Part shown: in pieces, positions 22,251-63,154 of the stretch | How the letters are laid out: every line of letters begins with the position of its first letter | Numbering within the stretch: position 1 is the first letter of the stretch | Assembly (NCBI GenBank): GCA_001821395.1 | Contig: MHLM01000012.1 | Location: forward strand, 64,001-128,000 | From: Candidatus Lloydbacteria bacterium RIFCSPHIGHO2_02_FULL_50_18 | GTDB lineage: Bacteria > Patescibacteriota > Minisyncoccia > Phycocordibacterales > UBA6899 | Reading direction: 5' to 3' | DNA length: 64,000 bases | Notes under the pieces: generated by a model | Database searches by the model: none | What the model was told of the DNA's origin: nothing | The model's input: only the letters and a program-made list of their open reading frames with translations | Translations under genes and position numbers: made by a program

Positions 22251-22667
22251 ATGCCAACGATCAACCAACTCGTAAAAAGCAGCAGAAAGCAGGTCGCCCA
22301 AAAATCGAAGGCGATTGCGATGGGTCGCGGTTTCAACTCGATCCAGAATCGACCGATCTTTTACAATTCCCCGTTTAAGCGTGGTGTTTGTACGAAGGTG
22401 ACGACCATGACTCCCCGCAAGCCGAACTCCGCTATCCGAAAGATCGCACGTGTACGCCTCACGAATGGCATGGAGGTCACTGCCTACATCCCGGGAATCG
22501 GACACAAGCTCCAGGAGCACTCAGTGGTCATCGTGCGCGGCGGCCGCGTGAAGGACCTTGGTCTTCGCTATCATATCGTTCGCGGACGACTCGATGCTAC
22601 CGGTGTGGACAAGCGCCAGCAGGGCCGCTCGTTGTACGGTGCAAAGCGTGCAGAGGTGAAGAAGTAG
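22251..22667 (+). CDS. rpsL: 30S ribosomal protein S12
   Basis: MPTINQLVK...KRGVCTKV...PNSAIRK...VRGGRVKDL; long Firmicutes-type form. Confidence 0.95.
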
Positions 22668-22751
22668 TAGTATTCAAGTCTTTACAGAAACTAATATCGC
22701 ACTGGAGTACCGACGACTTGCGGGAAAGACCAGTCGAACAAATAAAACAAT

Positions 22752-23222
22752 ATGCGCGGACCAGTAAAGAATCGTAATATCCGAAAGCCGGATGCAAAGT
22801 ATCATTCAGTAGAAGTTTCGACACTCATCAACTACGTGATGTGGGAAGGAAAAAAGACCATCGCAACGACGGTCGTTTATGATGCACTTGAGCTCATCAA
22901 AACTCAGCTAAAAGTAGAGGACCCTATCGAAGTCTACAAGGAAGCACTGCGCAACGCCGGACCGATCATGGAAATTCGTTCACGCCGCGTCGGTGGCGCC
23001 AATTATCAGGTTCCCCGTGAGGTCCGACCCGAGCGCCGCATCTTCCTCGCGCTGCGCTGGATCATCGATGCCGCTCGCTCAAAGAAGGGAGCCGGAATGG
23101 CCAAGAAGCTTGCCGATGAGATCATCTCCGCTTCAAAGAACGAGGGTGAAGCTATCAAGAAACGTGAGAATGTGCACAAGATGGCGGAAGCGAACAAAGC
23201 CTTCGCGCACTTCGCCTGGTAA
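22752..23222 (+). CDS. rpsG: 30S ribosomal protein S7
   Basis: S7 family throughout; 156 aa. Confidence 0.95.
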   Translation: MRGPVKNRNIRKPDAKYHSVEVSTLINYVMWEGKKTIATTVVYDALELIKTQLKVEDPIEVYKEALRNAGPIMEIRSRRVGGANYQVPREVRPERRIFLALRWIIDAARSKKGAGMAKKLADEIISASKNEGEAIKKRENVHKMAEANKAFAHFAW

Positions 23223-23487
23223 AAATTTTGTAATTCTGGCGCCCTTCGCGCTTGACTTTGAACGCGAGTCCGACGAACGTACTATGAGGAGTACGTCCGC
23301 ACGGACATCGCATTCTTGCCGCGCGCGAATTGCATCCAGAATAACAAAATTTTTCGTATCGGCTGCAAAATGCAGCAAATAAAATTCCCTCGAAAGGGGA
23401 ATTTTAATTTTACTAAATCGCGTTGCGGACGTAGTGTTTTATGTTATGGTGACGGAAGATCGTTCAAATTTAATGGAGGAGTGCGTT

Positions 23488-24075
23488 ATGTCCAAGAATT
23501 CTTGTGTCACCGTCATCTACCCGAAATCAATTCCAGTGAATAATGGAGCGGAGAATTGTTTTCTCCTTGGGCCCTGCACAAACGCGCCGCCATATCACGA
23601 GGATGTTATTGATATTTTTGCCCGACTCGCGAGAGAAGACAAAAAAATGATCTCCTTGCGCATCAATTGCCCGAAGCGAGAAGGGGAGATGGTCCGTGCG
23701 CTTGATGTTGTTGCTCCTCCCGCAGAGATCCATCATACCTATGCCCGTCAGCGGGAATGGGAGTTCGAGACTCAGGAGAGTGCCGCATTTTCTGCCGGTC
23801 TCTTGTTCTGTTTCGTTAAGCAGGGGAATAATGCTGTTCCCGAGAAGGTCTACGGAGCGATCACCCAAGTGGAGTTTGGCTATTGGCTTGCGCGGGCATC
23901 GGTCGATAGGCGCATACGCATCGCGTATTACTCTGATGGGATATACAACCACCAACTCCGCGTGCTCCTCCATGACATTGAGCGTCTTGCACCATGGCTT
24001 CTCCCGATGCATACTTCGTTTGAGTCATTGTGTGCGCAGTCGCTCGCATGGGCCAAGCAAGGCCCCTCAAAATAG
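23488..24075 (+). CDS. hypothetical protein (island between rpsG and fusA)
   Basis: GGAGG SD 8 nt upstream of MSKNSC start within ORF 23434..24075; no recognised domain. Confidence 0.5.
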   Translation: MSKNSCVTVIYPKSIPVNNGAENCFLLGPCTNAPPYHEDVIDIFARLAREDKKMISLRINCPKREGEMVRALDVVAPPAEIHHTYARQREWEFETQESAAFSAGLLFCFVKQGNNAVPEKVYGAITQVEFGYWLARASVDRRIRIAYYSDGIYNHQLRVLLHDIERLAPWLLPMHTSFESLCAQSLAWAKQGPSK

Positions 24076-24158
24076 TCCATCAAGCAAGCAATACGAACCG
24101 ATCCTCGGTTCGTTTTTCATTGCAATTTGTGATTCTTAGCCATATTTTCCCGCTTTTT

Positions 24159-24179
24159 TGTCAAGGTTAAACCTTGACA
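24159..24179. repeat. 21-bp perfect palindrome TGTCAAGGTTaAACCTTGACA within a ~40-bp repeat (second copy 45036..45056)
   Basis: Identical arms, T-run 5' flank conserved in both copies. Confidence 0.6.
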
Positions 24180-24194
24180 TTGATATATAAAGAA

Positions 24195-24225
24195 AAAACC
24201 TCCGATGAGTCGGAGGTATTTTTAC
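24195..24225. terminator. bidirectional rho-independent terminator
   Basis: aaaaacctccgatgagtcggaggtattttt. Confidence 0.7.
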
Positions 24226-24434
24226 GTTTGTTTGCTTGGAACTTTTTCTACTCGGTCGCGAGAGTAGTGCCCGTCAAGCCCGGGAATGTCCGTTGAAGTG
24301 CATACGTTGCTTCCATCACAGTGCCGGACAATGTAGATATTGCCGACCGTGAGCGGTAACGTACGCGATGTTTGCCCCGTTGGCTTCGAAAGCAATTTGA
24401 CTCGGTCATTCGAGCGCAGTGTTTGATCAGACAT
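24222..24434 (-). CDS. hypothetical small protein, translationally coupled to upstream gene
   Basis: GGAGGA SD and ATGTCTGA start/stop overlap with preceding gene. Confidence 0.4.
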   Translation of the reverse strand: MSDQTLRSNDRVKLLSKPTGQTSRTLPLTVGNIYIVRHCDGSNVCTSTDIPGLDGHYSRDRVEKVPSKQT

Positions 24435-24777
24435 GAGCATCCTCCATAAATAGATCCGTTTCCGGGGTGATCCCAATACTTTTGATGATCTGCCCGTTGT
24501 CACTCCGTTCGTTCAGGGTGAAACATACCGTTGCAGTACTGTATCCCACGTGACACTTGCTCAGTTTTCCGAGTAATTTGCCTTGCGCGTAGGCGCTGAC
24601 TGTTTTACCGGTGAGCGTGCAAAGTGCAGTGAGATATTGGTCGTTGCGTGCATGGCCCAAGGCTACCGCACTTAGCTCTTTTGCCAACGGATGTCCCATT
24701 TTATTGAGTACATTGACGGCATTTCGGTATTGTTCCTCACGGTACTTGTGGAGTACGTAGGGAATGGGGAATTGCAT
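24427..24777 (-). CDS. hypothetical protein
   Basis: 116-aa ORF, first of a two-gene minus-strand operon inside the rpsG-fusA island. Confidence 0.45.
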   Translation of the reverse strand: MQFPIPYVLHKYREEQYRNAVNVLNKMGHPLAKELSAVALGHARNDQYLTALCTLTGKTVSAYAQGKLLGKLSKCHVGYSTATVCFTLNERSDNGQIIKSIGITPETDLFMEDAHV

Positions 24778-24975
24778 TTGCCTCTCCTTGTTTTGATTTT
24801 GAACTCCTGTGTAAAACTATACATAAGATATTGTTCTTGTAAAGATTCTTTGCAGGTTGCTCAAAAGGGGAGTTTTCTATATAGTAACGCCATTAAGTGC
24901 CCTTTGTGGCGTTTTTGTTTACGCGGCAGTTCGCGTTACGGGGAAGATCATTTATTCGTTTTTTATTCACTTTTT

Positions 24976-27123
<2,148 letters not shown>

Positions 27124-27142
27124 ATATATTTCTCGTAGATAA

Positions 27143-27180
27143 ATAAAAGCGATCATTATTTAATGGTCGCTTTTATTTTT
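27143..27180 (+). terminator. rho-independent terminator after fusA
   Basis: aaagcga...tcgcttttattttt. Confidence 0.6.
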
Positions 27181-27194
27181 GCTATACTATATCC

Positions 27195-27746
27195 ATGTAC
27201 GATGATGAAGATGATGACGACGAAGACGAGGGTGAAATAGGGCTTGATGCAGAAACAGTGCGACGCGAAGAGGCCGAGGTCGTGCAGGGGAAAGCATCCC
27301 GTGCTTTTTATGATGACCTCGCAAAAAAAGAAGATGATCGTCACAATGCGATGCGTCTTGACATGCAACAGCGCGCACTTGCCGCGGGTGAACTCCGTCA
27401 AAAATTACGCAATAAAGAAACCGAGCTGCACGCGCTCCAACTCAAGATCACTATTGAGGAAGACCGTATCGATTATGAAAAAAAGAAAGCGTACCGTCTT
27501 GGAGGAGGTGAATCTATCGCTACGGGAGATGGAGCAACACGATCTGTCCCGATCCCCATACTCTCAAAAGATGTTGACGCTAAGGATGCTGATCAAGAAT
27601 TTTCGGTAGAACACGCTGAAATACACATCAAGCAATTGCAGAGTGAAAAATTGGAGCTTGAAAAGGTGTTGAGCGGAATGAAGGAGCATTTGAATGAAGA
27701 AGAGCGTGCGTTGTCACAACTTCAGCATCAACTCGTTCGCATGTAA
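27195..27746 (+). CDS. acidic coiled-coil protein
   Basis: Poly-Asp/Glu N-terminus (MYDDEDDDDEDEGE), heptad-like E/K/L/Q-rich remainder. Confidence 0.5.
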   Translation: MYDDEDDDDEDEGEIGLDAETVRREEAEVVQGKASRAFYDDLAKKEDDRHNAMRLDMQQRALAAGELRQKLRNKETELHALQLKITIEEDRIDYEKKKAYRLGGGESIATGDGATRSVPIPILSKDVDAKDADQEFSVEHAEIHIKQLQSEKLELEKVLSGMKEHLNEEERALSQLQHQLVRM

Positions 27747-27777
27747 TGGCGTTCTTCTTTTTGTTGCATGATATAAT

Positions 27778-29043
27778 TTGGTCATGCCCGAAGATGAAGC
27801 CAACCAATCCTCAGCCGCATCCGGGAGTCTAGGCGGTCTTCCCGATAGTGTAGCTCCTTCGGCCAGCGTGGAACCAAAAATAATTTCATCACCAGCACCA
27901 ATGGTCTCCTCTGTTGTGTTACCCGTGGCGAATCCTATCGATCCTGCGGCGACAGAGAGTTCCGCAAATAATGAGAAGCATCTGCTACTCATTGCGCATC
28001 TATTGAATCAGGTTCGCATCAAAAAGTCTGAGATAGGTGCTGCTCGCGATAAGATGGGTCAATTGGGGCGCGAGAGCGCGCAATTGCAAACCGAAATGCA
28101 CCATATTGAGCAAGACGTGCGCCGTGTTGAGGGAGAGTTGTACCAGGTCAAGCTTGATGCCAATAAGCAAGAGAGCACGTCAAAAGGAGAGCAGGTTGGC
28201 ATGAACGATAAAGATACGGAACTGAAAAGGCGGAGCGATGGCATCGCGAGGCTCGAGCGAGATATCGATAAATTGAAGCAAGCGATCGCCGAGCGAGAGC
28301 AACGAATAGCTGAGATAAAAACTGAAAATAGTTCACTTGCGAAATCAAAGGAGGACCTCAGGCGAAAGATCGAGCTCGAACTTGCAGGCATCAGGGTCAA
28401 GGCCGAAAAAGCACGCGAGAAGGAAACCGCGATACGGCGCATAAAACAAGATCATGAACGGAAAAAGATGGAGATCTTTCACAAGAAGAGTGCGCCTGTT
28501 GACCGCTTACACTCAGCTCTAGATAACCAGCGGGAGGTTTCCCGACTGGAGTCCGACCTGCGGCATATTGAGCAGGAACTGTCGCGCACAGAGGGCGAGC
28601 TCCGTCTTATCGAAACGAGTGAGCACCAAGAAGAGAATACATCAAGGGTGGATCAGGGTGAGATGCGCAATAGGGATATGGTGATCTATAAAACAGGAGA
28701 TGAGGTTGTTAAGCTCGGCAGAGAGATAGGGCGGCTGAACGTTGAGATTGCCGAGAAGGAAAGTGAGATAGCAAAGCTGGGCGGTGAAGGTCAGGAGTTG
28801 AGAAAGGGAAGAGAGGAGTTACGGCGACGGTATGAACTCGAGCATTTTAGTGCAAACTCAGGATTTACGCTTGCGCATGAGAAAGAGCTTCAGCTCTCTC
28901 GTTTTAAGCAGGGATTTCTTTTGAAGGAGGATAAGATCAAAAAGAACGAACATGCGCAAATACAACTACGCCATGACCTCATCTCCCTTGAGCAAGATCT
29001 GGCAACGGTTGAAGCAGAATTGCGTCATGCTAACAGTGCATAG
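27778..29043 (+). CDS. long coiled-coil protein with threefold repeated L..HIEQ.L.R.EGEL motif
   Basis: Repeats EMHHIEQDVRRVEGELY / DLRHIEQELSRTEGELR / LISLEQDLATVEAELR. Confidence 0.5.
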   Translation: MVMPEDEANQSSAASGSLGGLPDSVAPSASVEPKIISSPAPMVSSVVLPVANPIDPAATESSANNEKHLLLIAHLLNQVRIKKSEIGAARDKMGQLGRESAQLQTEMHHIEQDVRRVEGELYQVKLDANKQESTSKGEQVGMNDKDTELKRRSDGIARLERDIDKLKQAIAEREQRIAEIKTENSSLAKSKEDLRRKIELELAGIRVKAEKAREKETAIRRIKQDHERKKMEIFHKKSAPVDRLHSALDNQREVSRLESDLRHIEQELSRTEGELRLIETSEHQEENTSRVDQGEMRNRDMVIYKTGDEVVKLGREIGRLNVEIAEKESEIAKLGGEGQELRKGREELRRRYELEHFSANSGFTLAHEKELQLSRFKQGFLLKEDKIKKNEHAQIQLRHDLISLEQDLATVEAELRHANSA

Positions 29044-29157
29044 CTCTTGATGTGTAACACACTCTGCCGTCACGGGAGACGAACTCTTGCGGGGAAATCT
29101 AAGGACAACGTCAGGTGATGATATGGTTGTGCTTCGATAGTTTATTGTTCAGTAAAA

Positions 29158-29245
29158 GGTATTAAACCCCAGGGCAAGCCCTGGGCTCGCGATGGGCTCG
29201 CAAAGCCTCGCGCGAGTCTAGGGCTGTGCCGCAGGGTATTAAACC
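29158..29245. repeat. 66-bp GC-rich palindromic element flanked by 11-bp direct repeats GGTATTAAACC (TSD-like)
   Basis: Direct repeats at 29158..29168 and 29235..29245; internal ccagggcAAGccctgg hairpin and ctcgcgcgag palindrome. Confidence 0.5.
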
Positions 29246-29295
29246 TTTTTTAGCTCTCCTCGGCACCACGGAGAGTACTTCATTTTTTTATGTTC

Positions 29296-29343
29296 AGAAT
29301 ATTATCTTAACCTATGCTATAGCATAGGTTAAGATAATATTCT
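29296..29343. repeat. 48-bp perfect palindrome AGAATATTATCTTAACCTATGCTA|TAGCATAGGTTAAGATAATATTCT
   Basis: Exact reverse-complement symmetry over 48 nt in the convergent intergenic region. Confidence 0.8.
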
Positions 29344-29460
29344 TGATGTAGATATACATGTGTACACTTTTTTAATCGCACCACGAGAGTACTTCCATTC
29401 TTCTAAGGTGGAGTACCACCAAGAAGAATTGGTCGCTCGATGAAATCGCTCTACATCGGC

Positions 29461-29492
29461 AATAAAAAAACGAACCCGAGGGTTCGTTTTGT
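29461..29492 (-). terminator. rho-independent terminator for the dNK-like gene
   Basis: Minus strand reads aaacgaaccctcgggttcgtttttttattg. Confidence 0.75.
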
Positions 29493-29494
29493 CT

Positions 29495-30235
29495 TCATTC
29501 AGTGTGCTGGCGCATTTTTCGCGCTTCGGCAACAAGTCGCTCGAGCGTGTCCGTTGCGATATGGTTTACCATCTCCGATTCAGTCATTGTGGTCGTATCG
29601 ATGAGTTGGATCTGCGGATATTTCGGCGAAAGTTCTTCATGCATCGTCCGATAGCGGTCCACGAGTTTGCGGATCGACGCGGGGTTCGATGTCTCACCGA
29701 GCTTGTCCGAGAGTGCGATACGTTGTCCGCGGCGCATTGCTTCTTCAGGTTCACATACCACGACATAGGAGGCGATGATACGGTCTACCCAAAAACGCAG
29801 CAGGAAGAATTGCTGGATGAGTTCACGCTCTTCACCGGAGAGCAGTCCCTTGTCTTGCCAGTACATCATCCACGCGTACGGGTCAAAGATCGAACGATCA
29901 AAGATCACCACATCGTAAGCATGACCATGTGTGTAGTCGATGACCATCTCGAGCGCATAGAGTGCGGTGCGGATGTTGTATTCCGGAGTCGTACGCGGAA
30001 TATGTCCGATTACTTCGGCGCCTTCTTGCGGAATGTGCACGCGCAATCCTCTGCGTTTCAAGAATTTATAAAGTTCCTTGATGCAGGTCGTTTTTCCCGA
30101 ATCCGGAGAACCGGTGAATTCGATAAGGAATGGGCGTGGCAAGAATGTACCTCCGTAACGCACGTCCGTTCGCAGGTATCCGTGCAGCATGTCCGCCATG
30201 AGTTCGAGGCGGGCAATGTCGATGGTTTTTGACAT
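29495..30235 (-). CDS. deoxynucleoside kinase-like P-loop kinase
   Basis: Walker A GSPDSGKTT, downstream DRSIFD (ERS/DRY-like) motif and Arg-rich lid RRGQR. Confidence 0.6.
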   Translation of the reverse strand: MSKTIDIARLELMADMLHGYLRTDVRYGGTFLPRPFLIEFTGSPDSGKTTCIKELYKFLKRRGLRVHIPQEGAEVIGHIPRTTPEYNIRTALYALEMVIDYTHGHAYDVVIFDRSIFDPYAWMMYWQDKGLLSGEERELIQQFFLLRFWVDRIIASYVVVCEPEEAMRRGQRIALSDKLGETSNPASIRKLVDRYRTMHEELSPKYPQIQLIDTTTMTESEMVNHIATDTLERLVAEARKMRQHTE

Positions 30236-30288
30236 GAAATACTCTCTTTCTTTTGAAAAAGTACCAAGCTGTGTTTTACTATACCTGA

Positions 30289-30882: not shown

Positions 30883-30956
30883 GACAAAACGCGGAAGGTG
30901 CATAAGTCGCTTTGAAGGCTGCGGGGGTCTGATACGATGAAGATGAGGAACCTCTT

Positions 30957-52474: not shown

Positions 52475-55219
52475 ATGTCCTCAACAAAAAGGTTTTTTTC
52501 ACTGTGCATGTTTGGCATATTCCTCCTTCCCTCACTCGCCGCTGCTGACACCACCATCTCCTCCAACATCACCACGAATCAAACCTGGACCACGGCAAGC
52601 AGTACATACATCGTCACCACCGGTATTGCGATCAACGCAGGTGTCACCCTCACCATCAACCCCGGAGTGATCGTGAAGTTCAGCGGGATCATGTCCGGCA
52701 TCACCGTGAATGGGACGTTAAACGCCCAAGGAACCGCACTTGCACCGATATACTTCACCTCATACAAAGATGACACCGTGAATGGTGATACGAATGGCGA
52801 TGCGACCTCAACAACCCCAGCCGGGGGCGACTGGTTTTGGTTCTCCATTCCCGCGGGCGGAGCAGCAACGATCGACAACGCGATCATCCGCTATGGCGGC
52901 AGTTTCAATACTGCGCTGTTCTATAATAACGGAGGTAACCTCACCCTTGCGAACTCCGAAGTCGCATCCAGTTCCAAGTATGGCATCTGGACATATTCCG
53001 GCATATCAACTATCGCTTCTTCCACCATCGATCACAACGCGAGCTACGGTATCTATCATACGGGAGGCACCACTACCGTTGCCACGAGTACGATCCGCGA
53101 TCACAGCACCTATGGCTTCTCCACCCAGAGCGGAACTGGAAATCTCATCCTCACCAACAATATCTTTTCCGGTAATCTTCAAGGTGGAGGACTGGTGAAC
53201 TTGGCCGACAGTGCAAACGTGACCCATACGAACAACAGTGCAACGGGGCAAGGAAAGGGTGGCATGGTCATCTATGGTTCTCCCAATAAGGCACAGACAT
53301 GGGGAGCAGACCCGCTCTTCCCGTATATTATCTCAACGACAACAGGGTCGGTCACCGTGAGTACGTATGCCATCACCCTCAATCCCGGTGCGATCATCAA
53401 ATTTGAAGGAACAACCGCAGGGTTTGCGGGCAATTCAGGCACCTTCACTGCCGCGGGAACTACACAATCTCCCGTATATTTCACCTCCATCAAGGACGAC
53501 ACCGTGGGTGGCGACACCAATGGGAATGGCACGGGTACCACTCCATCTGCGGGGGATTGGGATGGTCTCATGTCCCAGAACTATAGCAATCTCACGTTGA
53601 ACAATACCGTGATCCGCTACGGTGGCTCAAAGATGCTCTATGCCAACGGTGTGAACAGCGTCATCAACCTATTCAACTCAGAAGTTGCCAGCAGTTCAAG
53701 TGCGGGAATCTATAGTGATGCAGGAACAGTGAATGCCACCGGTACGAGCATTCACGACAATCGCTACGGCTATTATCACGGCAATGTCCAAGGCAATAGC
53801 ATTGCCCACATTGCCAATGCCGGCAACACCATCTATCGCAATAGCACCTATGGTATTTATAACAATGGAACCGCCCTCGTGAATGCCGAGCAGGTATACT
53901 GGCCGGCGACAACAACGGGAGCGACGATGAATGGGCCGTATAGTACAAGCACCAACCCAGGGGGGCATGGAGATGCTGTGCTCCCCACATACATCGACTT
54001 TGATCCTTGGCTCTCTACCGTGTCAGGAAATATCGCAACGAATACCACGTGGACTGCTTCGAGTACATATGTCATTGATGGAACGCTCACGGTGAATGCG
54101 GGGACGACACTCACGATTCCTGCAGCTACGGTGGTGAAGTTTGCCAATGCAACCTCAAAGATCAGCGTCTCGGGGAGCTTGGTTGCAGATTCTGCAGCGT
54201 CTTCCTCACGAATATATTTCACGTCAATCAAGGATGATGCGGTGGGAGGGGATACCAATGGAGATGGGGGTGCGACTTCACCTGCTGCGGGAGATTGGGA
54301 TGGGATCAAAGTGAATGCGGGAGGCGTTGCAACACTGAACTTCATTTCTGCTCGCTATGGAGGAAGTGGTGGGCCCATGCTTTGGAACTATGCAGGAACG
54401 TTGGATCTTAATAATTCAGAAATTGCGAGCAGTAGTAATACGGGAATCTTCCATTCCTCGGGTGCCACGCAATTAATAGTTCGAGCTTGTGATATTCACA
54501 ACAATAATTATGGCATATTTGTTGACGACAGCTCGCTTGTGACAATCGGCAGCAACAATATTCATGGCAATGTTGTGGGAGTAAATGATAATACTTTTTT
54601 TGGGATTGATATTAGATATAACTATTGGGGTGATGCAAGTGGCCCATATAATTCTGTCTATCACCCGACTGGGACCGGTGATACCATCGTTGAGAATGCG
54701 TTTACGCTTGTTTCTCCATGGTTAGACAGGGTACATTATTTGTATTTCTTAAACCACAATTTGGTTACTTCGATTACCAGTGGAGTATTGGATTGGAATT
54801 GGTTCAACGGCACATCTACTTATGCGACGGCTTGGTATGCAGGAGTTAACACATGGAACACATATGGAAATTCGGTTGGAGGAGTTACTTTTGCAACAAG
54901 TACCACGGCAACATCCTCAGCTGATTTACTCGTTTTGGACATGGCTAGCTCATCTAGTGATTTATTCTATGCCATCTACGACCCCTTTGTTACTCCTACG
55001 GAAATTAAATTTAACCCTTATTATATGAACACTGCAACTGCTAATATAAGGCAAATGACCACAACTCATGAACTTGGTCATGCCCTAGGGCTTTGGCACA
55101 GTTATATAAACAACATCATGATTGCATCCCCAGCTTCAACTACTGGTCAGGTTTCACTGGGCACTCAAGATATGTTGGATTACGATTATTGTTGGGTGAG
55201 TCATAATTGTGGGATATAA
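52475..55219 (+). CDS. large secreted protein: signal peptide, three ~270-aa parallel beta-helix-like super-repeats, C-terminal metzincin (HELGHALGLWH) protease domain
   Basis: Repeated YFTS(I/Y)KDD.V.GDTNG..G.T.PAGDW and I(R/I)YGGS...NSE(V/I)ASSS blocks; HEXXHXXGXXH at residues ~880; start at MSSTKRFFSLCMFGIFLLPSLAAA within ORF 52409. Confidence 0.7.
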   Translation: MSSTKRFFSLCMFGIFLLPSLAAADTTISSNITTNQTWTTASSTYIVTTGIAINAGVTLTINPGVIVKFSGIMSGITVNGTLNAQGTALAPIYFTSYKDDTVNGDTNGDATSTTPAGGDWFWFSIPAGGAATIDNAIIRYGGSFNTALFYNNGGNLTLANSEVASSSKYGIWTYSGISTIASSTIDHNASYGIYHTGGTTTVATSTIRDHSTYGFSTQSGTGNLILTNNIFSGNLQGGGLVNLADSANVTHTNNSATGQGKGGMVIYGSPNKAQTWGADPLFPYIISTTTGSVTVSTYAITLNPGAIIKFEGTTAGFAGNSGTFTAAGTTQSPVYFTSIKDDTVGGDTNGNGTGTTPSAGDWDGLMSQNYSNLTLNNTVIRYGGSKMLYANGVNSVINLFNSEVASSSSAGIYSDAGTVNATGTSIHDNRYGYYHGNVQGNSIAHIANAGNTIYRNSTYGIYNNGTALVNAEQVYWPATTTGATMNGPYSTSTNPGGHGDAVLPTYIDFDPWLSTVSGNIATNTTWTASSTYVIDGTLTVNAGTTLTIPAATVVKFANATSKISVSGSLVADSAASSSRIYFTSIKDDAVGGDTNGDGGATSPAAGDWDGIKVNAGGVATLNFISARYGGSGGPMLWNYAGTLDLNNSEIASSSNTGIFHSSGATQLIVRACDIHNNNYGIFVDDSSLVTIGSNNIHGNVVGVNDNTFFGIDIRYNYWGDASGPYNSVYHPTGTGDTIVENAFTLVSPWLDRVHYLYFLNHNLVTSITSGVLDWNWFNGTSTYATAWYAGVNTWNTYGNSVGGVTFATSTTATSSADLLVLDMASSSSDLFYAIYDPFVTPTEIKFNPYYMNTATANIRQMTTTHELGHALGLWHSYINNIMIASPASTTGQVSLGTQDMLDYDYCWVSHNCGI

Positions 55220-55230
55220 CATTGAAAACC

Positions 55231-55959
55231 ATGAACAAAGATATAAAAGATATAATAATCCTTCTTACTGCACTCCTGCTCTCTGCCATCGTCATTGCTG
55301 GAATATATTACAGAGCAAAAAGAATACCCGAAGAAACTCCAGGAACCTTGAAAAGATATCAGCTCCAAGGAACACCTGATCATCCGGCGATGTTTTATCC
55401 TACCGATCTGACTAAAGATATAAACCTATTGGGCTCATCTCATGATGTTTTCATAGGAAAAGTCATTTCTCAAACTGGTGACAAAGAAACTCAGATTGGA
55501 CCACGCACACAATATTCGGTGGAAGTTATTGATAATATTAAGGGTAAGTTAAAAGATATTGTAACCATTGACATGCTGGGTGGTTATGACAAAGATGGCA
55601 AGTTGGTAGTAATCGAAGAAAATGATTCAACTGATTTTCTCCTTAAACCAGGCTCAACTTACCTCTTTGCTACCCGTTATAACGAAGAAGAGGATTGGTA
55701 TACTCTAATTTCTCACCCGAATGCTCGAAAAATTATAAGTACAGATAACACAAAAAATGAAGCCGCTCTCATGGCTCTCATCGACCAAGACGAAAAGGTA
55801 AAATCCTTTGAATCCGCATACGCCCATGAAGTTCTCCTCGACGCCGACATCGCCCACGGAAATACTCGTAACTCCTTCCAGTCTCTCGCACCAGCGGAAA
55901 AAGCCGCCGCCCAATCCCGCGCTGATGCGGCAAGAGCCTTGCTTGAGGCAATGCAGTAA
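55231..55959 (+). CDS. N-terminally membrane-anchored protein, partner of the beta-helix/metzincin gene
   Basis: MNKDIKDIIILLTALLLSAIVIAGIYY TM anchor then soluble ~200-aa domain; start overlaps upstream gene stop; 5' region duplicated at 56196. Confidence 0.5.
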   Translation: MNKDIKDIIILLTALLLSAIVIAGIYYRAKRIPEETPGTLKRYQLQGTPDHPAMFYPTDLTKDINLLGSSHDVFIGKVISQTGDKETQIGPRTQYSVEVIDNIKGKLKDIVTIDMLGGYDKDGKLVVIEENDSTDFLLKPGSTYLFATRYNEEEDWYTLISHPNARKIISTDNTKNEAALMALIDQDEKVKSFESAYAHEVLLDADIAHGNTRNSFQSLAPAEKAAAQSRADAARALLEAMQ

Positions 55960-56002
55960 GATGCTTCTGCGGGGGTATACTTATTTGTGAACACAACGGC
56001 TC

Positions 56003-56185
56003 ATGAACAAAAAAATACTAAAATACACACTTGTCATCTTTGGGATATTCCTGCTCGGAGGCGTCGCGTTGTCGATCCATTTGTTCATCCAAAGTAAATT
56101 TGGTGTTTACGCTCCTCTAGATCGCGGATTTCCGGTAAGGACATTCCATCCAACGGGTATTAGTATTGATCAACCCAGCATTTGA
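56003..56185 (+). CDS. small single-TM protein (possibly degenerate copy of same family)
   Basis: MNKKILKYTLVIFGIFLLGGVALSI N-terminus echoes MNKDIKDIIILL... Confidence 0.3.
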   Translation: MNKKILKYTLVIFGIFLLGGVALSIHLFIQSKFGVYAPLDRGFPVRTFHPTGISIDQPSI

Positions 56186-56195
56186 ATGGATACCT

Positions 56196-56380
56196 ATCAT
56201 AATTGTGGGATATAACATTGAAAACTATGAACAAAGACATAAAAGATATAATGATTCTTCTTATTGCACTTCTACTCTCCATCGTCGTCATTGCTGGAAT
56301 ATATTACGGAATAAAAAGTACTCAAGGAACTGTAGTTTCAACATATTCTCATCAGGGAACGCCTGAAAATCCGGCAATGT
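56196..56380 (+). repeat. ~190-bp duplicate (~85% identical) of 55203..55400 (junction: ...HNCGI stop + 5' part of membrane-anchor gene), encoding a truncated 47-aa copy
   Basis: cataattgtgggatataacattgaaaac(c/t)atgaacaaaga(t/c)ataaaagatataat... shared. Confidence 0.7.
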
Positions 56381-56897
56381 AGAATTTCATAGAAAACAAT
56401 AATTATGGAAGCTCTAAAAAATGAATTAAAGAAAACAATGGTCGTATGGAGAGATGCGTTAATCTGAGAAAAAAGATTTGCTAATCTGAAAAAGCTATTC
56501 CTCGTTATTTTGGGTGTGGCTGTGTTTATCATTATCTTTCCGATGCCAACGAGGTGCAGGATAGAAAATCATGGAGCATATAGGCCGGCTAACGATTTAG
56601 TAATTGGTGCATACGTGGTTCGTGATTGTTACCCACCAAACCGTGCTGAATTTTGGCAGAACCCACAATTGAGTTTTGAATTTCGCTGGTTATTTGTTCC
56701 CACGTTAGACAGTATAACTGGTCATCGAGGTGTCAGTGTAATAAATATCCATCTATAAGGTAATCCCACATTCGCGTAAGCAATAAAAACTGCTACAAGG
56801 CGGGTCTTTGTTTTTTGTCTGGGCTATTCCTCGCGAGCACTAAGGTGTTCGCATATTGCTGGTCTGCGATAATCTAGTCTTATATAATAGACTCATA

Positions 56898-57320
56898 ATG
56901 AAACAAAATATACTCCTCGCGCTTACTGTTGCGGGCTTACTTTTCTCGGGTTATCTCGGCGGACTGAAGTTGTTTTCCGACACGTGTGCATTTAACGAGA
57001 CATGCGCGACATTTTTAGGGTACCCGACGTGTTATTACGGCTTTGCGATGTACCTCTTGATCTTTGTCCTTCTTCTCGCGTCGCGTTTCGGGAAGATGGG
57101 CGTTTCCCGCGCTCGGTACGGAGTAGCCGGTATCTCTTTTGCGGGCATTCTTTTTTCCGGATATTACAGTTTCCGCGAGTTATCAACTCTTCTTCGTGGG
57201 GATATTTCCGATTTTTTGCTCGGATTGCCGACCTGCGCATACGGATTCATCATGTATGTGGCTATTTTGGGCTTTGCGTTGTCATCGATACGAGAAATTC
57301 AAAAGAAGAAGTTGAACTAG
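56898..57320 (+). CDS. 4-TM membrane protein with internal duplication (G.PTC.YGF.MY twice)
   Basis: LGYPTCYYGFAMYLLIF and LGLPTCAYGFIMYVAIL halves; start at MKQNILLALT within ORF 56856. Confidence 0.45.
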   Translation: MKQNILLALTVAGLLFSGYLGGLKLFSDTCAFNETCATFLGYPTCYYGFAMYLLIFVLLLASRFGKMGVSRARYGVAGISFAGILFSGYYSFRELSTLLRGDISDFLLGLPTCAYGFIMYVAILGFALSSIREIQKKKLN

Positions 57321-57369
57321 CTGCTATTTTGCAGAAAAATTGAGATATTTTATTCTGTGTCGTCACAAA

Positions 57370-57398
57370 TTGACAGTCGTTGAGCCATTTGTTAGTAT
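57370..57398 (+). promoter_or_regulatory. sigma70-like promoter TTGACA-17-TAGTAT upstream of rpsZ
   Basis: ttgacagtcgttgagccatttgttagtat. Confidence 0.5.
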
Positions 57399-57529
57399 CC
57401 AAGCACGTTTCTTTTGATCCGCCTTTCTCCTTTTTGACCCCAAATCTTGGGAGCAAGAAGAAAACAGGCGTGATATTGAAAGGGCGTATTATGTCCGACC
57501 GCGTCGAGGTTGGTATTTATCTATTTATT

Positions 57530-57712
57530 ATGGCAAAAAAATCAACAATTGCACGACAACTCACCCCGAAATTTCCGGGTCGAGCAGTCAATCGCTGTTT
57601 TAAGTGCGGGCGAAAACGCGGCTATATGAGAGCTTTCGATCTCTGCCGTATCTGTTTTCGTGAATTAGCAAACGAGGGAAAGGTCCCCGGAATAAAGAAA
57701 TCATCATGGTAA
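57530..57712 (+). CDS. rpsZ: 30S ribosomal protein S14 type Z (zinc-binding)
   Basis: [10 protein letters not shown]...[34 protein letters not shown]; 60 aa. Confidence 0.85.
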
Positions 57713-58113
57713 TCACCGACCCAATCGCAGACATGTTCATGCGCATCAGGAATGGCGGTGCCGCCAAGAAGACGGTGGTGTATATCCCATTTTCTGATCT
57801 CAAGATGCGTATCGCAAATACGCTTATGAAGGAAGGATATTTAAGTTCAGTGTCAAAGAAGATACTCAAAGGCCGTATCACGGAGCGCATGATCGCCGTT
57901 GGTATCATTTATAGTGAGGACAAGCTTCCCCTCGTTCGAGGAATGGAGCGTGTCTCTCGTCCGTCGTGTCGTTCATATATTGGTGCAAAGGAACTGCGTC
58001 CGGTCAACCAGGGTCACGGCATCATGCTTCTTTCGACTCCAAAGGGTATTCTCACGGGAGAAGAAGCCCGCAAGGAGCACGTGGGAGGTGAAATTATTGG
58101 CAAAATCTGGTAA
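57706..58113 (+). CDS. rpsH: 30S ribosomal protein S8
   Basis: [14 protein letters not shown]-terminus. Confidence 0.9.
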
Positions 58114-58124
58114 TTCCCATCACT

Positions 58125-58658
58125 ATGTCCCGTTTAGCTAAAAAACCAATAATCATTCCCGAGAAGACGACCGTCACACTTCTTGACCACGTTGTCACTG
58201 TTAAGGGTCCGCTTGGAACACTTTCACGCGCATTTCCAAAGGTCATCGACGTAGCCATCACCGAAGGTCAGATCAATGTTTCACTCAATAATCCTAGCCG
58301 AGATTTCAAGGCACTTCTTGGTACCGCCTGCTCGCATATCAAGAATATGATCGCAGGGGTCAATAAGGTCTATGAAAAGAAGCTCATCATCGAAGGTATC
58401 GGCTATAAGGCAGACGCGAAGGGCCAGTTACTCACGATGGCGCTCGGCTTTTCACATCCCGTGAAGCTTGAGGCACCGGAGGGGGTCACCGTTGTCACTG
58501 AGAAGGGTTCCATGACGATCTCCGGTATCAGTAAGGAGGCGGTCGGACAATTCGCTGCGACTGTACGCTCTTGGAAGGTCCCTGAGCCGTATAAGGGAAA
58601 AGGCATTCGTTACTCCGATGAGGTTATTCGCCGTAAACAGGGTAAGAAAACCGCATAA
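58125..58658 (+). CDS. rplF: 50S ribosomal protein L6
   Basis: MSRLAKKPIIIPE...two L6 repeats. Confidence 0.9.
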   Translation: MSRLAKKPIIIPEKTTVTLLDHVVTVKGPLGTLSRAFPKVIDVAITEGQINVSLNNPSRDFKALLGTACSHIKNMIAGVNKVYEKKLIIEGIGYKADAKGQLLTMALGFSHPVKLEAPEGVTVVTEKGSMTISGISKEAVGQFAATVRSWKVPEPYKGKGIRYSDEVIRRKQGKKTA

Positions 58659-58659
58659 T

Positions 58660-59010
58660 ATGAAAAAGACAGAACTCAAAAACTATCATCGCATGCGACG
58701 ACACAATCGCATCCGTGCAAAAGTGTCGGGTACCGCAGCGATCCCTCGTTTGGCGATATTCCGATCTGCACGACACATCACCGCACAATTGATCGACGAC
58801 GAGAAGTCATTCACGATCGCCGCTTCAGGTGACGTGAAGAGCGTGAAGGGCACGAAGCTCGAGCACGCAACTGCCGTCGGTACGGACATCGCAGCAAAAG
58901 CAAAGGAGAAAAAGATCACCAAGGTCGTATTTGATCGCGGTGGATTCCTCTACGCAGGTCGCGTGAAGGCACTCGCCATCGCTGCACGGGCTGCTGGTCT
59001 CATATTTTAA
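58660..59010 (+). CDS. rplR: 50S ribosomal protein L18
   Basis: PRLAIFRSARHITAQLIDD...VFDRGGFLYAGRVKALA; start MKKTELKN inside ORF 58618. Confidence 0.9.
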   Translation: MKKTELKNYHRMRRHNRIRAKVSGTAAIPRLAIFRSARHITAQLIDDEKSFTIAASGDVKSVKGTKLEHATAVGTDIAAKAKEKKITKVVFDRGGFLYAGRVKALAIAARAAGLIF

Positions 59011-59012
59011 TC

Positions 59013-59696
59013 TTGACTATTACTATGGAAGAAAAAACACAACAAACAGCTCCAGTAGCTCCGGCCAAGGTCGCAACACAAGGCGGCGTACCGGTGCGTG
59101 CGTATACCCCTCGCCCTGCAGGCGGTGCTCCCCGATCTTCGGGCGGAGCACGCGTAGGAACGGGACGTGGCGGTGCAAAACCGCCTGAGCGCCGAGGTGG
59201 CGGTCGCGGTGGACGCACTGATCGTCCGAAACCAGAATATGACCAGAAGTCAATCGATGTGCGACGCGTTGCACGTGTCGTTGCAGGAGGTCGCCGCTTC
59301 TCTTTTTCGGTCGCAATGATCATCGGCGATAGGAAGGGCAAGGTCGGAGTCGGTACCGGGAAGGCCGGTGATATCTCGATGGCCATGGACAAGGCGGCAA
59401 AGGATGCCAAGAAGCACATGATCACCGTGAAGCTCACGAAGACGAACTCGATCCCGCATGAAGTGTTCGCGAAGGCGTCGAGTGCGGTCGTAGAGATCCT
59501 TCCCGCACCATCGCGCGGACTGGTCGCAGGATCAGCGATGCGTAACTTGCTTGAACTCGCAGGTATCACGGATGTTTCGGCAAAGATTCGCAGCGGTTCA
59601 AAGAACAAGCTTAATATGGCACGCGCTGGGATCAAGGCGCTTTCCACTCTTCGTCCTCGTGTACGAAAGGAGGCCGCAGTTACTCAAGAGAAATAA
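59013..59696 (+). CDS. rpsE: 30S ribosomal protein S5 with Gly/Arg/Pro-rich N-terminal extension
   Basis: VVAGGRRFSFSVAMIIGDRKGKVGVGTGKA core. Confidence 0.9.
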   Translation: MTITMEEKTQQTAPVAPAKVATQGGVPVRAYTPRPAGGAPRSSGGARVGTGRGGAKPPERRGGGRGGRTDRPKPEYDQKSIDVRRVARVVAGGRRFSFSVAMIIGDRKGKVGVGTGKAGDISMAMDKAAKDAKKHMITVKLTKTNSIPHEVFAKASSAVVEILPAPSRGLVAGSAMRNLLELAGITDVSAKIRSGSKNKLNMARAGIKALSTLRPRVRKEAAVTQEK

Positions 59697-59707
59697 GCCA
59701 CAGACAT

Positions 59708-60139
59708 ATGCAACTCAATCAACTAAAACGCGTTCACAGGAACAAGGATGACAAGCGTGTCGCACGCGGTGGAAAACGCGGAAAGACTGCGGGCCGCGGA
59801 ACGAAGGGTCAGAAGGCTCGCGCCGGACATCGTATGCGTCCTGAAATGCGTGACATCATCAAGAAGTTCCCGAAGAATCGCGGATACAAGAATCAGTCTT
59901 TCGAGGTGAAACCACAGCCGGTCAATCTTCTCGTCATCGAGACCTCGTTTGCCGCAGGCGAAGCAGTCAATCCGGAGACACTGCTCGCAAAGAAGCTTAT
60001 CAACAGGGTGGGCGGAAGGATGCCAAAGGTCAAGATCCTCGCAATGGGCAAGCTCACAAAGAAAGTGATCGTTACCGGTTGTGCGTTCTCGAAGACCGCA
60101 CAGGAGCACATTGAGGCAGCGGGAGGGACAATTCAATAA
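59708..60139 (+). CDS. rplO: 50S ribosomal protein L15 (no L30 gene between rpsE and rplO)
   Basis: RGGKRGKTAGRGTKGQKARAGH. Confidence 0.9.
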   Translation: MQLNQLKRVHRNKDDKRVARGGKRGKTAGRGTKGQKARAGHRMRPEMRDIIKKFPKNRGYKNQSFEVKPQPVNLLVIETSFAAGEAVNPETLLAKKLINRVGGRMPKVKILAMGKLTKKVIVTGCAFSKTAQEHIEAAGGTIQ

Positions 60140-60142
60140 TCG

Positions 60143-61438
60143 TTGGGCAAGAGCCCCACATTAACCATGAACAATTTTTTCTACAAACTACGCTTGATGA
60201 TCTCTGATCCGTCACTACGAGGGCGACTCCTCTTTGTTGTCGGAGCACTGGCCGTCTTCCGTATCGCCGCTTCGATCCCAATTCCGGGAGTCGATCACGC
60301 TGCACTGCTCCAGTTTTTCCAGAACAATCAGTTCCTGGGACTCTTGAATGTGTTTTCGGGATCGGGACTCTCAACACTCTCCATTGTCATGCTTGGTGTC
60401 GGACCGTATATCACGGGTTCCATCATCATGCAGCTCCTTACGATGATGTCGCCAAAACTGAAGGCGATGTATCACGAGGAAGGGGAGATCGGTCGCAAGA
60501 AATTCACTCAGTATTCACGCTTACTTACGGTGCCACTCGCAATGCTTCAGGGGTATGGATTGCTTGTATTGCTGGCGCGCCAGGGGGTGCTCGGAGATCT
60601 GAATCCATTCCAGTTGTTCGTAAACGTACTCATTGTTACGGCAGGTTCCCTTTTCCTGATGTGGATCGGTGAGCTAATCTCTGAGTTCGGTATCGGCAAT
60701 GGCGTCTCGATCCTCATCTTCGCAGGTATCGTCTCGCGTATTCCTACGGTTGCCTCTCAGACCTTGGTCTCCTACAACCCTCAGGATATACCGCTCTATC
60801 TTGCCTTCACCATCGCGGCAGTGGTTATCATCGCCGGGGTCATCGTCATGACCGAAGCGGAGCGACCGGTGCCGATCACGTATGCGAAGCGCGTGCGTGG
60901 CGGAAAGATGTACGGAGGAGTCTCTACTTACTTGCCGCTTCGTGTGAACCAGGCAGGTGTGATCCCGATCATTTTTGCTCTTTCGATCTTGCTTTTTCCT
61001 CAGCTTATCGGAGGATTTCTCTCTGGGCTCGCTAATCCGACGGCGCAGATGATCGGTGAATTCATGAAGACGAACTTTTCGCAGGGATGGATCTATTCGA
61101 TCTGCTACTTTGCGCTTGTCTTCCTCTTCACGTTCTTCTATACCGCAGTGACGTTCGATCCGGAAGCGGTTGCAACCAACCTTCAAAAGTCGGGTGCGTT
61201 CATTCCGGGAGTTCGACCGGGTGCAGCGACGGCAGAGCATATTGCGAAGATCCTCACTCGTACGACATTTGCAGGAGCATTATTCCTCGCAGGGGTCGCA
61301 GTATTGCCGCTTATCATGCAGTCGTTCACGGGAAACCAATCGCTTGCGATCGGTGGTACCGCACTCTTGATCGTTGTGTCGGTTGTGCTTGATCTTATCA
61401 AGAAAATGGACGCACAACTCTCGATGCGCGAGTATTAA
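60143..61438 (+). CDS. secY: preprotein translocase SecY (alternative start at 60167)
   Basis: LRGRLLFVVGALAVFRIAASIPIPGVD N-terminus, 10 TM. Confidence 0.9.
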   Translation: MGKSPTLTMNNFFYKLRLMISDPSLRGRLLFVVGALAVFRIAASIPIPGVDHAALLQFFQNNQFLGLLNVFSGSGLSTLSIVMLGVGPYITGSIIMQLLTMMSPKLKAMYHEEGEIGRKKFTQYSRLLTVPLAMLQGYGLLVLLARQGVLGDLNPFQLFVNVLIVTAGSLFLMWIGELISEFGIGNGVSILIFAGIVSRIPTVASQTLVSYNPQDIPLYLAFTIAAVVIIAGVIVMTEAERPVPITYAKRVRGGKMYGGVSTYLPLRVNQAGVIPIIFALSILLFPQLIGGFLSGLANPTAQMIGEFMKTNFSQGWIYSICYFALVFLFTFFYTAVTFDPEAVATNLQKSGAFIPGVRPGAATAEHIAKILTRTTFAGALFLAGVAVLPLIMQSFTGNQSLAIGGTALLIVVSVVLDLIKKMDAQLSMREY

Positions 61439-61638
61439 AAAACGAGCAATTTGGGCGCACTACAGGTTTGTCATCGGGTATGACCCCACGTCAACGTACG
61501 AGAGTACGTCTCGTGAGGATCATCCCTCGACGCACCCGTATTGCATCCCAAATTGTTCGTTTTTGTTTTGTCTTAAAATCATGAACATTTGGTTGTCGCG
61601 AATATCGTTGTAGCCGGCAAGTAGATCAAAACACAAAA

Positions 61639-61665
61639 GACCCGAAAGGGTTTTTTGTTTTATCG
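61639..61665 (+). terminator. rho-independent terminator between secY and adk
   Basis: aaaagacccgaaagggttttttgtttt. Confidence 0.65.
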
Positions 61666-61685
61666 TTTTTTGATACACTCTCTTT

Positions 61686-62291
61686 ATGAATAAAGAAACA
61701 TTTATCTTCATTGGGGCATCGGGATCAGGAAAAGGAACGCAGGTTGCCTTGCTCAAAGAAGAACTGCTCAAAAAAGATCCGACTACTCCGATCTTCTATC
61801 TTCAGACCGGACAGTACTTTCGTGAATTCATCAAAGATGATACTCTCGCGTCGCGTATCGCAAAAGATGCGATCAACAATGGCGAGCGTGCACCGGACTT
61901 TTTGGCGATGTATATCTGGTCAAAGGTGTTCGTCGAAAATCTCAAAGGAGAGGAGCATCTCATTATTGATGGTTCCCCGCGGTCGTTGAATGAAGCGCGA
62001 AATCTCGATATCGCGCTCAAGTTCTTTAAACGCGAACATCCCGCCGTCATTTATATCAATGTATCACGGAAGTGGTCGTTCGATCATTTGATGGCACGCG
62101 CAACGAAGGAGGGTCGCATTGACGATAACGCGGAGAGTATCAATAAGCGCATTGCATGGTTCGATGCAGATGTTCTTCCCGCCATCGAAAAATTCCGTCG
62201 CGATAGAGATTATGATTTTGTGGAGGTGAACGGTGAGCAATCGATCGAGGCTGTCCATCGCGACATCATGGCGAATGTGTTTGGGGTGTAA
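61686..62291 (+). CDS. adk: adenylate kinase (short-lid type)
   Basis: GASGSGKGTQV P-loop; 201 aa. Confidence 0.9.
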   Translation: MNKETFIFIGASGSGKGTQVALLKEELLKKDPTTPIFYLQTGQYFREFIKDDTLASRIAKDAINNGERAPDFLAMYIWSKVFVENLKGEEHLIIDGSPRSLNEARNLDIALKFFKREHPAVIYINVSRKWSFDHLMARATKEGRIDDNAESINKRIAWFDADVLPAIEKFRRDRDYDFVEVNGEQSIEAVHRDIMANVFGV

Positions 62292-62389
62292 CGTTCACTT
62301 TTGAGCACAAAATAGTGTTGATCAAACAGACTCGTGCTCACACCCGATCGCCGCTTTTTTATTCCGGAGAACGATGCTAGTATGCCGAT

Positions 62390-63154
62390 ATGGCCAAATT
62401 TAAGACAAAAGAGGAGATCGTCCTTCTGCGAGAGTCCGGAAAACGCTTGGCGCGGGTACTCCATGCCGTAGCAAAGGAGATCAAGCCGGGGGTGACCACG
62501 CAATATCTCGATGAAGTCGCCGAGCGGCTCATTCGTGAAACGGGCGATACTCCGCCATTTTTGAACTACACTCCGGTCGGTGCACGAAGACCGTACCCCG
62601 CGGCGCTTTGTGTGTCGGTGAATGACGAGATCGTGCACGGCATCCCGAGTGATCGCGTACTGAAGGAGGGCGATATCGTCTCTATCGATCTTGGACTCAC
62701 ACACAAAGGAATGATCACTGATGCGGCGCTTACTGTCCCGGTGGGCAAGGTCTCAAATAAGATATTGGAATTGATCTCAGAAACAGAACGCTCACTCAAG
62801 GAGGGCATTCGCGCTATGCATCCCGGAGGACACATCGGGGATATCGGTGCAGCCGTTGAGCGTGTTGCGCATCAGCATGGGTACGGTATCGTGCGTGAGC
62901 TTGGCGGTCATGGGGTAGGGCATGCGGTGCACGAAGACCCCTATGTTCCCAATTACGGAAAAAAACATTCCGGTCCGATACTCAAGCCCGGTATGGTCTT
63001 GGCGCTTGAGCCGATGTTCATGTTGGGAAGTGAAGATATTCGGCTTATGCCGGACGGGTATACGATCATTACGGAAGACGGCTCTCTCTCTGCGCACTTT
63101 GAACATACGGTTGTCGTCACTGAAACAGGAGTAGAGATACTGACGAAGGAATAG
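62390..63154 (+). CDS. map: methionine aminopeptidase type I
   Basis: Metal-ligand D/D/H/E/E pattern; 254 aa. Confidence 0.9.
   Translation: MAKFKTKEEIVLLRESGKRLARVLHAVAKEIKPGVTTQYLDEVAERLIRETGDTPPFLNYTPVGARRPYPAALCVSVNDEIVHGIPSDRVLKEGDIVSIDLGLTHKGMITDAALTVPVGKVSNKILELISETERSLKEGIRAMHPGGHIGDIGAAVERVAHQHGYGIVRELGGHGVGHAVHEDPYVPNYGKKHSGPILKPGMVLALEPMFMLGSEDIRLMPDGYTIITEDGSLSAHFEHTVVVTETGVEILTKE

Follow-up and report, generated by a model that had tools for sequence, protein, structure and literature searches.

A str-S10-spc ribosomal gene cluster of Candidatus Lloydbacteria, interrupted at junctions that are probably insertion-permissive boundaries of separately promoted units

The str-S10-spc(-alpha) cluster is the textbook example of extreme conservation of gene order, and the sets of syntenic ribosomal-protein markers by which uncultured bacteria are placed and binned are built on it. 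In Escherichia coli, the junctions rpsG/fusA and fusA/tuf lie inside the str operon, rplB/rpsS lies inside the S10 operon, and rplE/rpsN inside the spc operon. Gammaproteobacteria and Bacilli are known to carry insertions of a few genes (tusDCB, bfd-bfr, nrdHEF, ilv-leu) at operon borders, with full disconnection in descendants, and such insertions relax selection for synteny of the cluster (PMC8046335). Here we describe this cluster in a 64,000-nt stretch (the 'window') of contig MHLM01000012.1 (positions 64,001 to 128,000) from Candidatus Lloydbacteria, a member of the Paceibacterota within the Candidate Phyla Radiation (CPR) sampled from groundwater of the Rifle aquifer, and compare it with about 95 related loci. 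The fusA protein of the window shares 100% identity with that of Candidatus Lloydbacteria bacterium RIFCSPHIGHO2_01_FULL.

When read from six-frame open reading frames (ORFs) and their translations, with families assigned by use of Pfam and NCBIfam, the genes of the cluster are colinear, all on the plus strand and in canonical order, and they form five blocks: (i) rpsL (22251-22667) and rpsG (22752-23222), together spanning 22251-23222; (ii) fusA (24976-27123); (iii) tuf (32936-34126), rpsJ, rplC, rplD, rplW and rplB (36588-37433), spanning 32936-37433; (iv) rpsS (45857-46201), rplV, rpsC, rplP, rpmC, rpsQ, rplN, rplX and rplE (48972-49583), spanning 45857-49583; and (v) rpsZ (57530-57712), rpsH, rplF, rplR, rpsE, rplO, secY, adk and map (62390-63154), spanning 57530-63154. 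Spacers are short inside the blocks, and contiguity of the cluster is broken by four gaps of 1753, 5812, 8423 and 7946 nt (islands 1 to 4). A first-pass annotation, made from the letters of the window, had likewise described the conserved order and orientation along with four interruptions of ~1.75, 5.7, 8.4 and 8 kb. When compared with the canonical cluster (PMC8046335), the locus thus has the same genes in the same order and orientation, and insertions at borders are known there too. It differs in that each break lies within one of the E. coli operons, while the str/S10 (tuf/rpsJ) and S10/spc (rpsQ/rplN) borders are never broken in our sample, and in that rpmD is absent: none lies between rpsE and rplO in the window. 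Lack of rpmD is a reported trait of CPR bacteria (PMC9297842).

All window proteins were placed by tblastn on loci of relatives, which are designated by L-numbers and are centred on rplB (GTDB genomes), on rplE (80 loci from metagenomes, 51-81% identity) or on fusA (74-94% identity); the species-level relatives in GTDB are metagenome-assembled genomes of Lloydbacteria, Parcubacteria or Paceibacterota. Across the relatives the rpsE/rplO spacer is at most 146 nt long, leaving no room for rpmD in any of them, and the sample is therefore CPR-like throughout. One 1.8-kb locus labelled 'uncultured Gammaproteobacteria' (L018, CAZYEQ010000090.1) carries an rplB fragment 90% identical to the Lloydbacteria protein and is probably mis-binned.

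Gaps exceeding 400 nt are concentrated at few junctions. They occur at rpsG/fusA in 6 of 7 loci, at fusA/tuf in 6 of 8, at rplB/rpsS in 20 of 27 (a further 8 loci have no rpsS within 1.8-10 kb), at rplE/rpsZ in 22 of 42 (with rpsZ likewise out of range in a further 10), at secY/adk in 14 of 25 and at adk/map in 10 of 24, whereas the approximately 20 remaining junctions show zero or one such gap each (n = 7-73 loci per junction). The first-pass annotation had regarded insertions at several junctions of so conserved a locus as unusual; the same junctions are, however, interrupted repeatedly among the ~95 related loci, and the split arrangement is lineage-wide in Paceibacterota-like CPR bacteria. 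In one relative (L101, 85% fusA identity), a three-ORF insertion of 1.5 kb (5852-7317) is located at rpsL/rpsG, a junction that is otherwise intact in the sample.

In three loci the units are fully disconnected or permuted. Locus L020 has rplO-secY-adk upstream of a minus-strand queA followed by rpsS…rplE, with rpsZ absent within 10 kb; in L102, fusA is followed by secE-nusG-rplK, a minus-strand queA and rpsS; and in L104, from a complete Campbellbacteria genome (CP064977, 14766-19349), genes for 23S rRNA, three tRNAs and 5S rRNA stand after fusA. This fits the published picture of relaxed selection for synteny (PMC8046335). As a side observation on L104, no 16S rRNA gene is found directly upstream of the 23S rRNA gene, and one tRNA match, 151 nt in length, may include an intron.

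What fills the gaps is partly old and mostly diverse. The 222 gap ORFs fall into 170 clusters, 144 of which are singletons. At the same junctions, other lineages carry a ParE toxin, a sigma factor with a response regulator and pilin-like genes, GATase_4, an M20 peptidase or MlaC, and Pfam matches of the gap ORFs comprise DAGK, a Schlafen-type helicase, a deaminase, a reverse transcriptase with bAvd, PadR, PspC, toxin-antitoxin genes and nucleotide kinases; the 25 families listed for each set of gap ORFs include neither an integrase nor a transposase. The core of island 2, that is, a minus-strand AAA_28 gene followed by two HAD genes and YdjM, is kept among the nearest relatives (82-96% rplB identity) and is seen in L009, L105 and L016, and the YdjM-tuf adjacency persists down to 76% fusA identity (L103). 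A minus-strand queA adjoins rpsS also in L020, L023 and L102, while in L009 it stands at the far end of the island, in a locus that stops before rpsS. A homologue of the M50 peptidase gene found directly upstream of rpsL in the window (21368-22108) occupies this position in 7 of 8 fusA-centred loci (53-72% identity), the remaining one (L103) having a glycosyl hydrolase gene instead. The cc183-cc421 gene pair adjoins tuf in L099-L101 and fusA in the window, where five further genes follow, and this shows repeated additions within a single junction. The first-pass annotation had held that the same insertions with conserved content in relatives would argue for an ancient, stable arrangement. This is borne out for the breaks as such and for YdjM-tuf, queA(-)-rpsS, M50-rpsL and the AAA_28/HAD/HAD/YdjM core, which are old and conserved, but not for most other content, which turns over. 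Nucleotide-kinase genes are seen at secY/adk and adk/map, for example, in L047, L059, L062, L066, L072, L077, L078 and L096, and in L051, L066, L071, L084, L088, L094 and L096, and make up a nucleotide-kinase neighborhood around adk.

Sigma-70-type promoter motifs were scanned for within 300 nt upstream of each gene in all relatives, requiring a match of at least 10/12 (typically TTGACA-16/17-TAGTAT). Such promoter-like matches precede rpsS in 28 of 41, rpsZ in 16 of 42 and tuf in 11 of 22 loci, and these numbers rise to 37/41, 32/42 and 20/22, respectively, when at least 9/12 is accepted. Other genes reach 0-12% at 10/12, and the value for rpsH simply reflects the rpsZ promoter located inside its 300 nt. 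The matches are independent of gap size, being present also at rplB/rpsS gaps of 97-360 nt and rplE/rpsZ gaps of 28-230 nt. Since the motifs thus exist where a junction is uninterrupted, the promoters are not products of the insertions: those before rpsS, rpsZ and tuf probably predate them, and the junctions have the appearance of long-standing borders between transcription units. In the window, the promoter-like sequence TTGACA-17-TAGTAT with an extended TG (57370-57398, plus strand) precedes rpsZ, exactly as the first-pass annotation had indicated; its description of the promoters of downstream blocks as 'new' does not hold, given that the rpsS, rpsZ and tuf promoters are conserved in the lineage. 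A promoter-like TTGACT-17-TAGTAT (45708-45736, plus strand) lies 120 nt upstream of rpsS, and the conserved tuf promoter reads TTGACT-16-TATCCT (32706-32733). For fusA, a candidate promoter was found by eye (TTGCTC-17-TATAGT, 24857-24885; 8/12) at a position matching that in relatives.

The distribution of terminator-like hairpins is similarly uneven. Within 250 nt downstream, they are found in the relatives after rplB (64%), fusA (40%), secY (39%), rpsG (29%), rpsL (25%, 8 loci) and rplE (17%), and after the remaining genes in 0-10%, mostly 0-4% (map 10%). Such hairpins are also enriched in the region studied in the window (38 versus 20.6±4.6 expected; 46 versus 19.4±4.5), while promoter-like matches overall show no clear enrichment there (18 versus 21.4; 36 versus 24.3±4.8). 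Individual instances are located in island 1 (23380-23406, 24093-24113 and 24198-24217, the last bidirectional), in island 2 (29467-29490, bidirectional), after rplB at the start of island 3 (37570-37592) and after rplE in island 4 (49824-49853, a strong terminator). Hence, motif statistics in the relatives and the window place a predicted promoter upstream and a predicted terminator downstream of the units, which is evidence at the level of sequence.

Based on these data, we consider it probable that the cluster of Lloydbacteria and related Paceibacterota does not form a single long transcription unit but a succession of units, each with its own promoter and with insertion-permissive boundaries between them, the units being (M50)-rpsL-rpsG, fusA, tuf…rplB, rpsS…rplE, rpsZ…secY, adk and map. 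With a promoter of its own for each downstream unit and a terminator after several upstream ones, DNA inserted between units would leave essential expression uncut and would be tolerated; the junctions would accept insertions because promoters were already in place. Insertions inside a unit, by contrast, would disrupt co-transcription as well as tight coupling and be eliminated. Over time, boundaries might then gain, swap and lose unrelated genes, with the units of some lineages drifting wholly apart, and the present genome would represent one snapshot in which the units are still ordered, four boundaries are filled, and their content is in part inherited and in part decaying. The pattern would then be a variant of the known erosion of operon clusters, with unit borders placed differently from those of Gammaproteobacteria and Bacilli. 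A limited literature search yielded no description of a fragmented superoperon in CPR bacteria, which is weak evidence of novelty. That a large CPR lineage breaks the cluster at fixed junctions other than those of E. coli constitutes a natural experiment, suggesting that co-transcription within units, and not the whole cluster, holds genes together; it also indicates new promoter and leader elements, and serves as a warning that, in these genomes, a distance of over 10 kb may separate ribosomal marker genes, or they may be located on different contigs.

Several points weigh against this explanation. In the window, fusA has no terminator after it, the T-tract of the hairpin after rplB is weak, and the fusA promoter matches at 8/12 positions only; promoters and terminators are, moreover, consensus matches of predicted function. 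The loci are anchored on rplB, rplE and fusA and reach no more than 10 kb to either side, so junctions distant from the anchors are represented by n = 7-8, and since gaps were counted locus by locus, the number of independent insertions is not exact. Gap ORFs were called naively (at least 70 amino acids), which inflates the number of singletons. Finally, the junction-gap pipeline covered CPR-like loci only.

Among alternative explanations, one might suppose that the breaks date back to a common ancestor, with one event per junction, and that all present diversity results from turnover of genes in place, with no recurrent insertion. Neither rplB-rpsS nor fusA-tuf adjacency is observed in any sampled Lloydbacteria-like relative having sufficient flank, and anchor genes (queA, YdjM, cc183/cc421) persist, as one would expect in that case. 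However, more distant relatives uninterrupted at rplB/rpsS (7/27) and rplE/rpsZ (20/42) are intermixed with interrupted ones bearing unrelated genes, and additions at fusA/tuf are nested, so that we regard a single ancestral break per junction as unlikely.

Somewhat harder to sustain is a scenario in which the inserted genes were recruited for useful co-expression with translation genes, as might be imagined for the tRNA modification gene queA, the kinases beside adk and the nucleotidase-like HAD genes. The recurrence of cytidylate kinase (9 loci, minus strand), pyrH-like amino-acid kinase (7 loci) and guanylate kinase (2 loci) at secY/adk and adk/map would be in line with such recruitment, as would the queA-rpsS adjacency kept in L020, L023 and L102. 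Yet the inserted ORFs are mostly unrelated singletons with no known function, queA is encoded on the opposite strand, and two island genes of the window are pseudogenes; recruitment is thus quite improbable as the explanation.

The first-pass annotation had viewed the insertions as accessory islands at integration hot spots, and one may accordingly ask if they are recently acquired mobile genomic islands, integrated site-specifically at att sites inside the superoperon. As in genomic islands and integrative elements, variable genes occupy set places in the chromosome, with conserved sequence on either side. At the species level, the content differs among relatives, and an empty site was not seen within the sampled Lloydbacteria. 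Toxin-antitoxin genes and the reverse transcriptase with bAvd in the gaps of some relatives, repeats near island borders, and the low G+C content at third codon positions (GC3) of the Fic pieces, hyp250 and hyp60 (0.33-0.43 versus 0.57 for core genes) could be taken to favor such an origin. In contrast to mobile elements, however, the island ORFs of the window exhibit no Pfam or NCBIfam match to an integrase, transposase or recombinase, the window contains neither tRNA nor transfer-messenger RNA (tmRNA) genes, and in a repeat search of the window no pair of direct (att-type) repeats brackets any single island. The composition is mostly native (GC3 of 0.515±0.074 for island and 0.570±0.067 for core genes, the sole outliers being those just named), and part of the content is ancient, with the island 2 core and the queA, YdjM and M50 adjacencies being kept down to 76-85% protein identity. 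Mobile islands are therefore a very improbable source, and we infer that permissiveness of boundaries, rather than active targeting, underlies the pattern. The notion of hot spots survives in modified form: the same junctions are indeed broken repeatedly with different genes, but as pre-existing, permissive unit boundaries of an entire lineage and not as targets of mobile islands.

A chimeric assembly that fused unrelated contigs at the junctions, the misassembly which the first-pass annotation had wished to see checked, can be dismissed with near certainty, since nothing was found in its favor and independent assemblies of different samples in ENA, JGI and Logan, identified by their identical rplB, rpsG and island 4 M50 proteins (ENA ANAN16-1 scaffolds, megahit k141, JGI 3300002502 and Logan runs), reproduce the same gene neighborhoods over all four junctions.

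The most novel by-product of our analysis is a candidate leader RNA of the rpsZ unit. Leader RNAs of ribosomal-protein genes are autoregulatory mRNA structures (PMC3616713). The rpsZ leader comprises ~130 nt and contains a structured element (57412-57480, plus strand) with a conserved hairpin (57417-57474) exhibiting the invariant nucleotides AUC…CUC…AAG…GAUAU. In an alignment of 16 sequences, compensatory changes are seen at 16 of 21 base pairs and 94.9% of cells are paired; 0 of 500 shuffled controls reach this pairing, and slid controls attain 36-62%. A covariance model yields 22 matches in 1.12 Mb, of which six fall outside the seed alignment; every match is on the plus strand, in the stretch separating rplE from rpsZ. 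The element is present in the window and in L023, L024, L037, L039, L042, L051, L052, L059, L066, L068, L072, L078, L081, L084, L088, L089, L092-L094, L096 and L097. Like described ribosomal-protein leaders, the hairpin resides in the 5' untranslated region (UTR) of a ribosomal-protein unit and shows strong covariation; unlike them, it fits no family of Rfam 15. We consider it a candidate autoregulatory leader RNA. At the gathering threshold, no Rfam family is found anywhere in the window, and the matches obtained in E-value mode for the rpsZ leader, the rpsS leader and the repeat element described below were rejected as chance hairpins.

The rpsS leader likewise carries a hairpin (45769-45792; ACGCC-GUGGGAGGAUCAGG-GGCGU) that is conserved in Lloydbacteria-like loci (L019, L020, L023 and L102). 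In more distant relatives, a short AGCUC-NNNN-GAGCU hairpin, together with a U-run, is found instead directly after the promoter and has an attenuator-like look. It is tempting to speculate, albeit tentatively, that Paceibacterota have re-partitioned the superoperon into separately promoted and regulated units, with the starts of rpsS, rpsZ and tuf each having a leader RNA, and that the rpsZ hairpin is an autoregulatory element not described before, to which S8 or S14 might bind. If true, such re-partitioning would explain why insertions and later scattering occur solely at these junctions.

The islands of the window differ in content. Island 1 (23223-24975, 1753 nt) encodes hyp213 on the plus strand and hyp93 and hyp116 on the minus strand, none of which has a family match; hyp93 and hyp116 are kept solely in L105, the relative with 94% fusA identity. 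According to Pfam, island 2 (27124-32935, 5812 nt) encodes two coiled-coil proteins and an AAA_28 NTPase, the latter on the minus strand, followed by two HAD/NT5C-like paralogues, hyp103 and a membrane protein resembling YdjM. Island 3 (37434-45856, 8423 nt) comprises a Fic pseudogene, BI-1, hyp205, hyp106, hyp285, hyp282 and, on the minus strand, queA (43900-44970) and hyp79, with Pfam matches to Fic, Bax1-I and queA (E = 2.9e-101) and none for the other five ORFs. At least two of its genes are decaying, because Fic is split over three frames (37674-37808, 37820-38494 and 38437-38760) and BI-1 (38889-~39546) is frameshifted after residue ~139; L009 and L014 have intact BI-1 homologues, and an identical 194-residue BI-1 gene call recurs in independent assemblies. 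A perfect promoter sequence upstream of Fic and BI-1 (TTGACA-16-TATAAT, 37640-37667) would drive the Fic pseudogene.

Island 4 (49584-57529, 7946 nt) encodes hyp122, hyp273, an M50 peptidase (51318-52367), a 936-residue beta-helix/metzincin protein (52409-55219), hyp250, hyp60, a partial duplicate of hyp250 and a VKOR-like protein (56856-57320). The beta-helix protein contains a C-terminal HELGHALGLWH motif and exhibits weak Pfam matches to metzincins (M10/M43); three internal repeats of ~730 nt (96-nt cores, 67-74% identity) are found in its gene at 52749-54308. Of the gene labels in the first-pass annotation, Fic, BI-1 (Bax1-I), queA, M50 and beta-helix are thus confirmed by Pfam, metzincin weakly so, whereas the 'HD hydrolase' at 42061-42918 has no Pfam or NCBIfam match and shows an H…HD-like motif by eye only, and this label is not supported. 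Two direct repeats in island 4, one of 75 nt containing a gene 3' end and terminator (50251-50325 and 51214-51288, 96% identity) and the other a 122-nt duplicate of the hyp250 start (55201-55322 and 56197-56318, 89% identity), are signs of local duplication.

The rpsS-rplE block is bracketed by two inverted copies (120-180 nt each) of a self-folding repeat, the left at 45580-45701 and the right at 49588-49765, at the start of island 4. A 51-nt stretch is 96% and a 66-nt stretch 83% complementary, and the copies fold singly with -58.4 and -61.2 kcal/mol (z = -5.8 and -4.3, respectively). The element was seen in the contigs of this organism only, with no copy in any sampled relative. The pair could allow inversion of the rpsS-rplE block, or the element could stabilize the 3' UTR after rplE; a role as 5'/3' RNA processing stem around the block is unlikely, since the left copy is upstream of the conserved promoter, the copies self-fold and no relative has the pair. 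A 22-nt palindrome, TTGTCAAGGTT(T)AAACCTTGACAA, which might serve as a terminator in both directions or as an operator-like site, occurs in island 1 (24158-24179) and island 3 (45036-45057) with a common T-rich 5' flank. Perfect palindromes with 30, 24 and 19 nt per arm are located at 42056-42116, 29296-29343 and 41318-41357, respectively, and the first of these overlaps the annotated start of hyp285.

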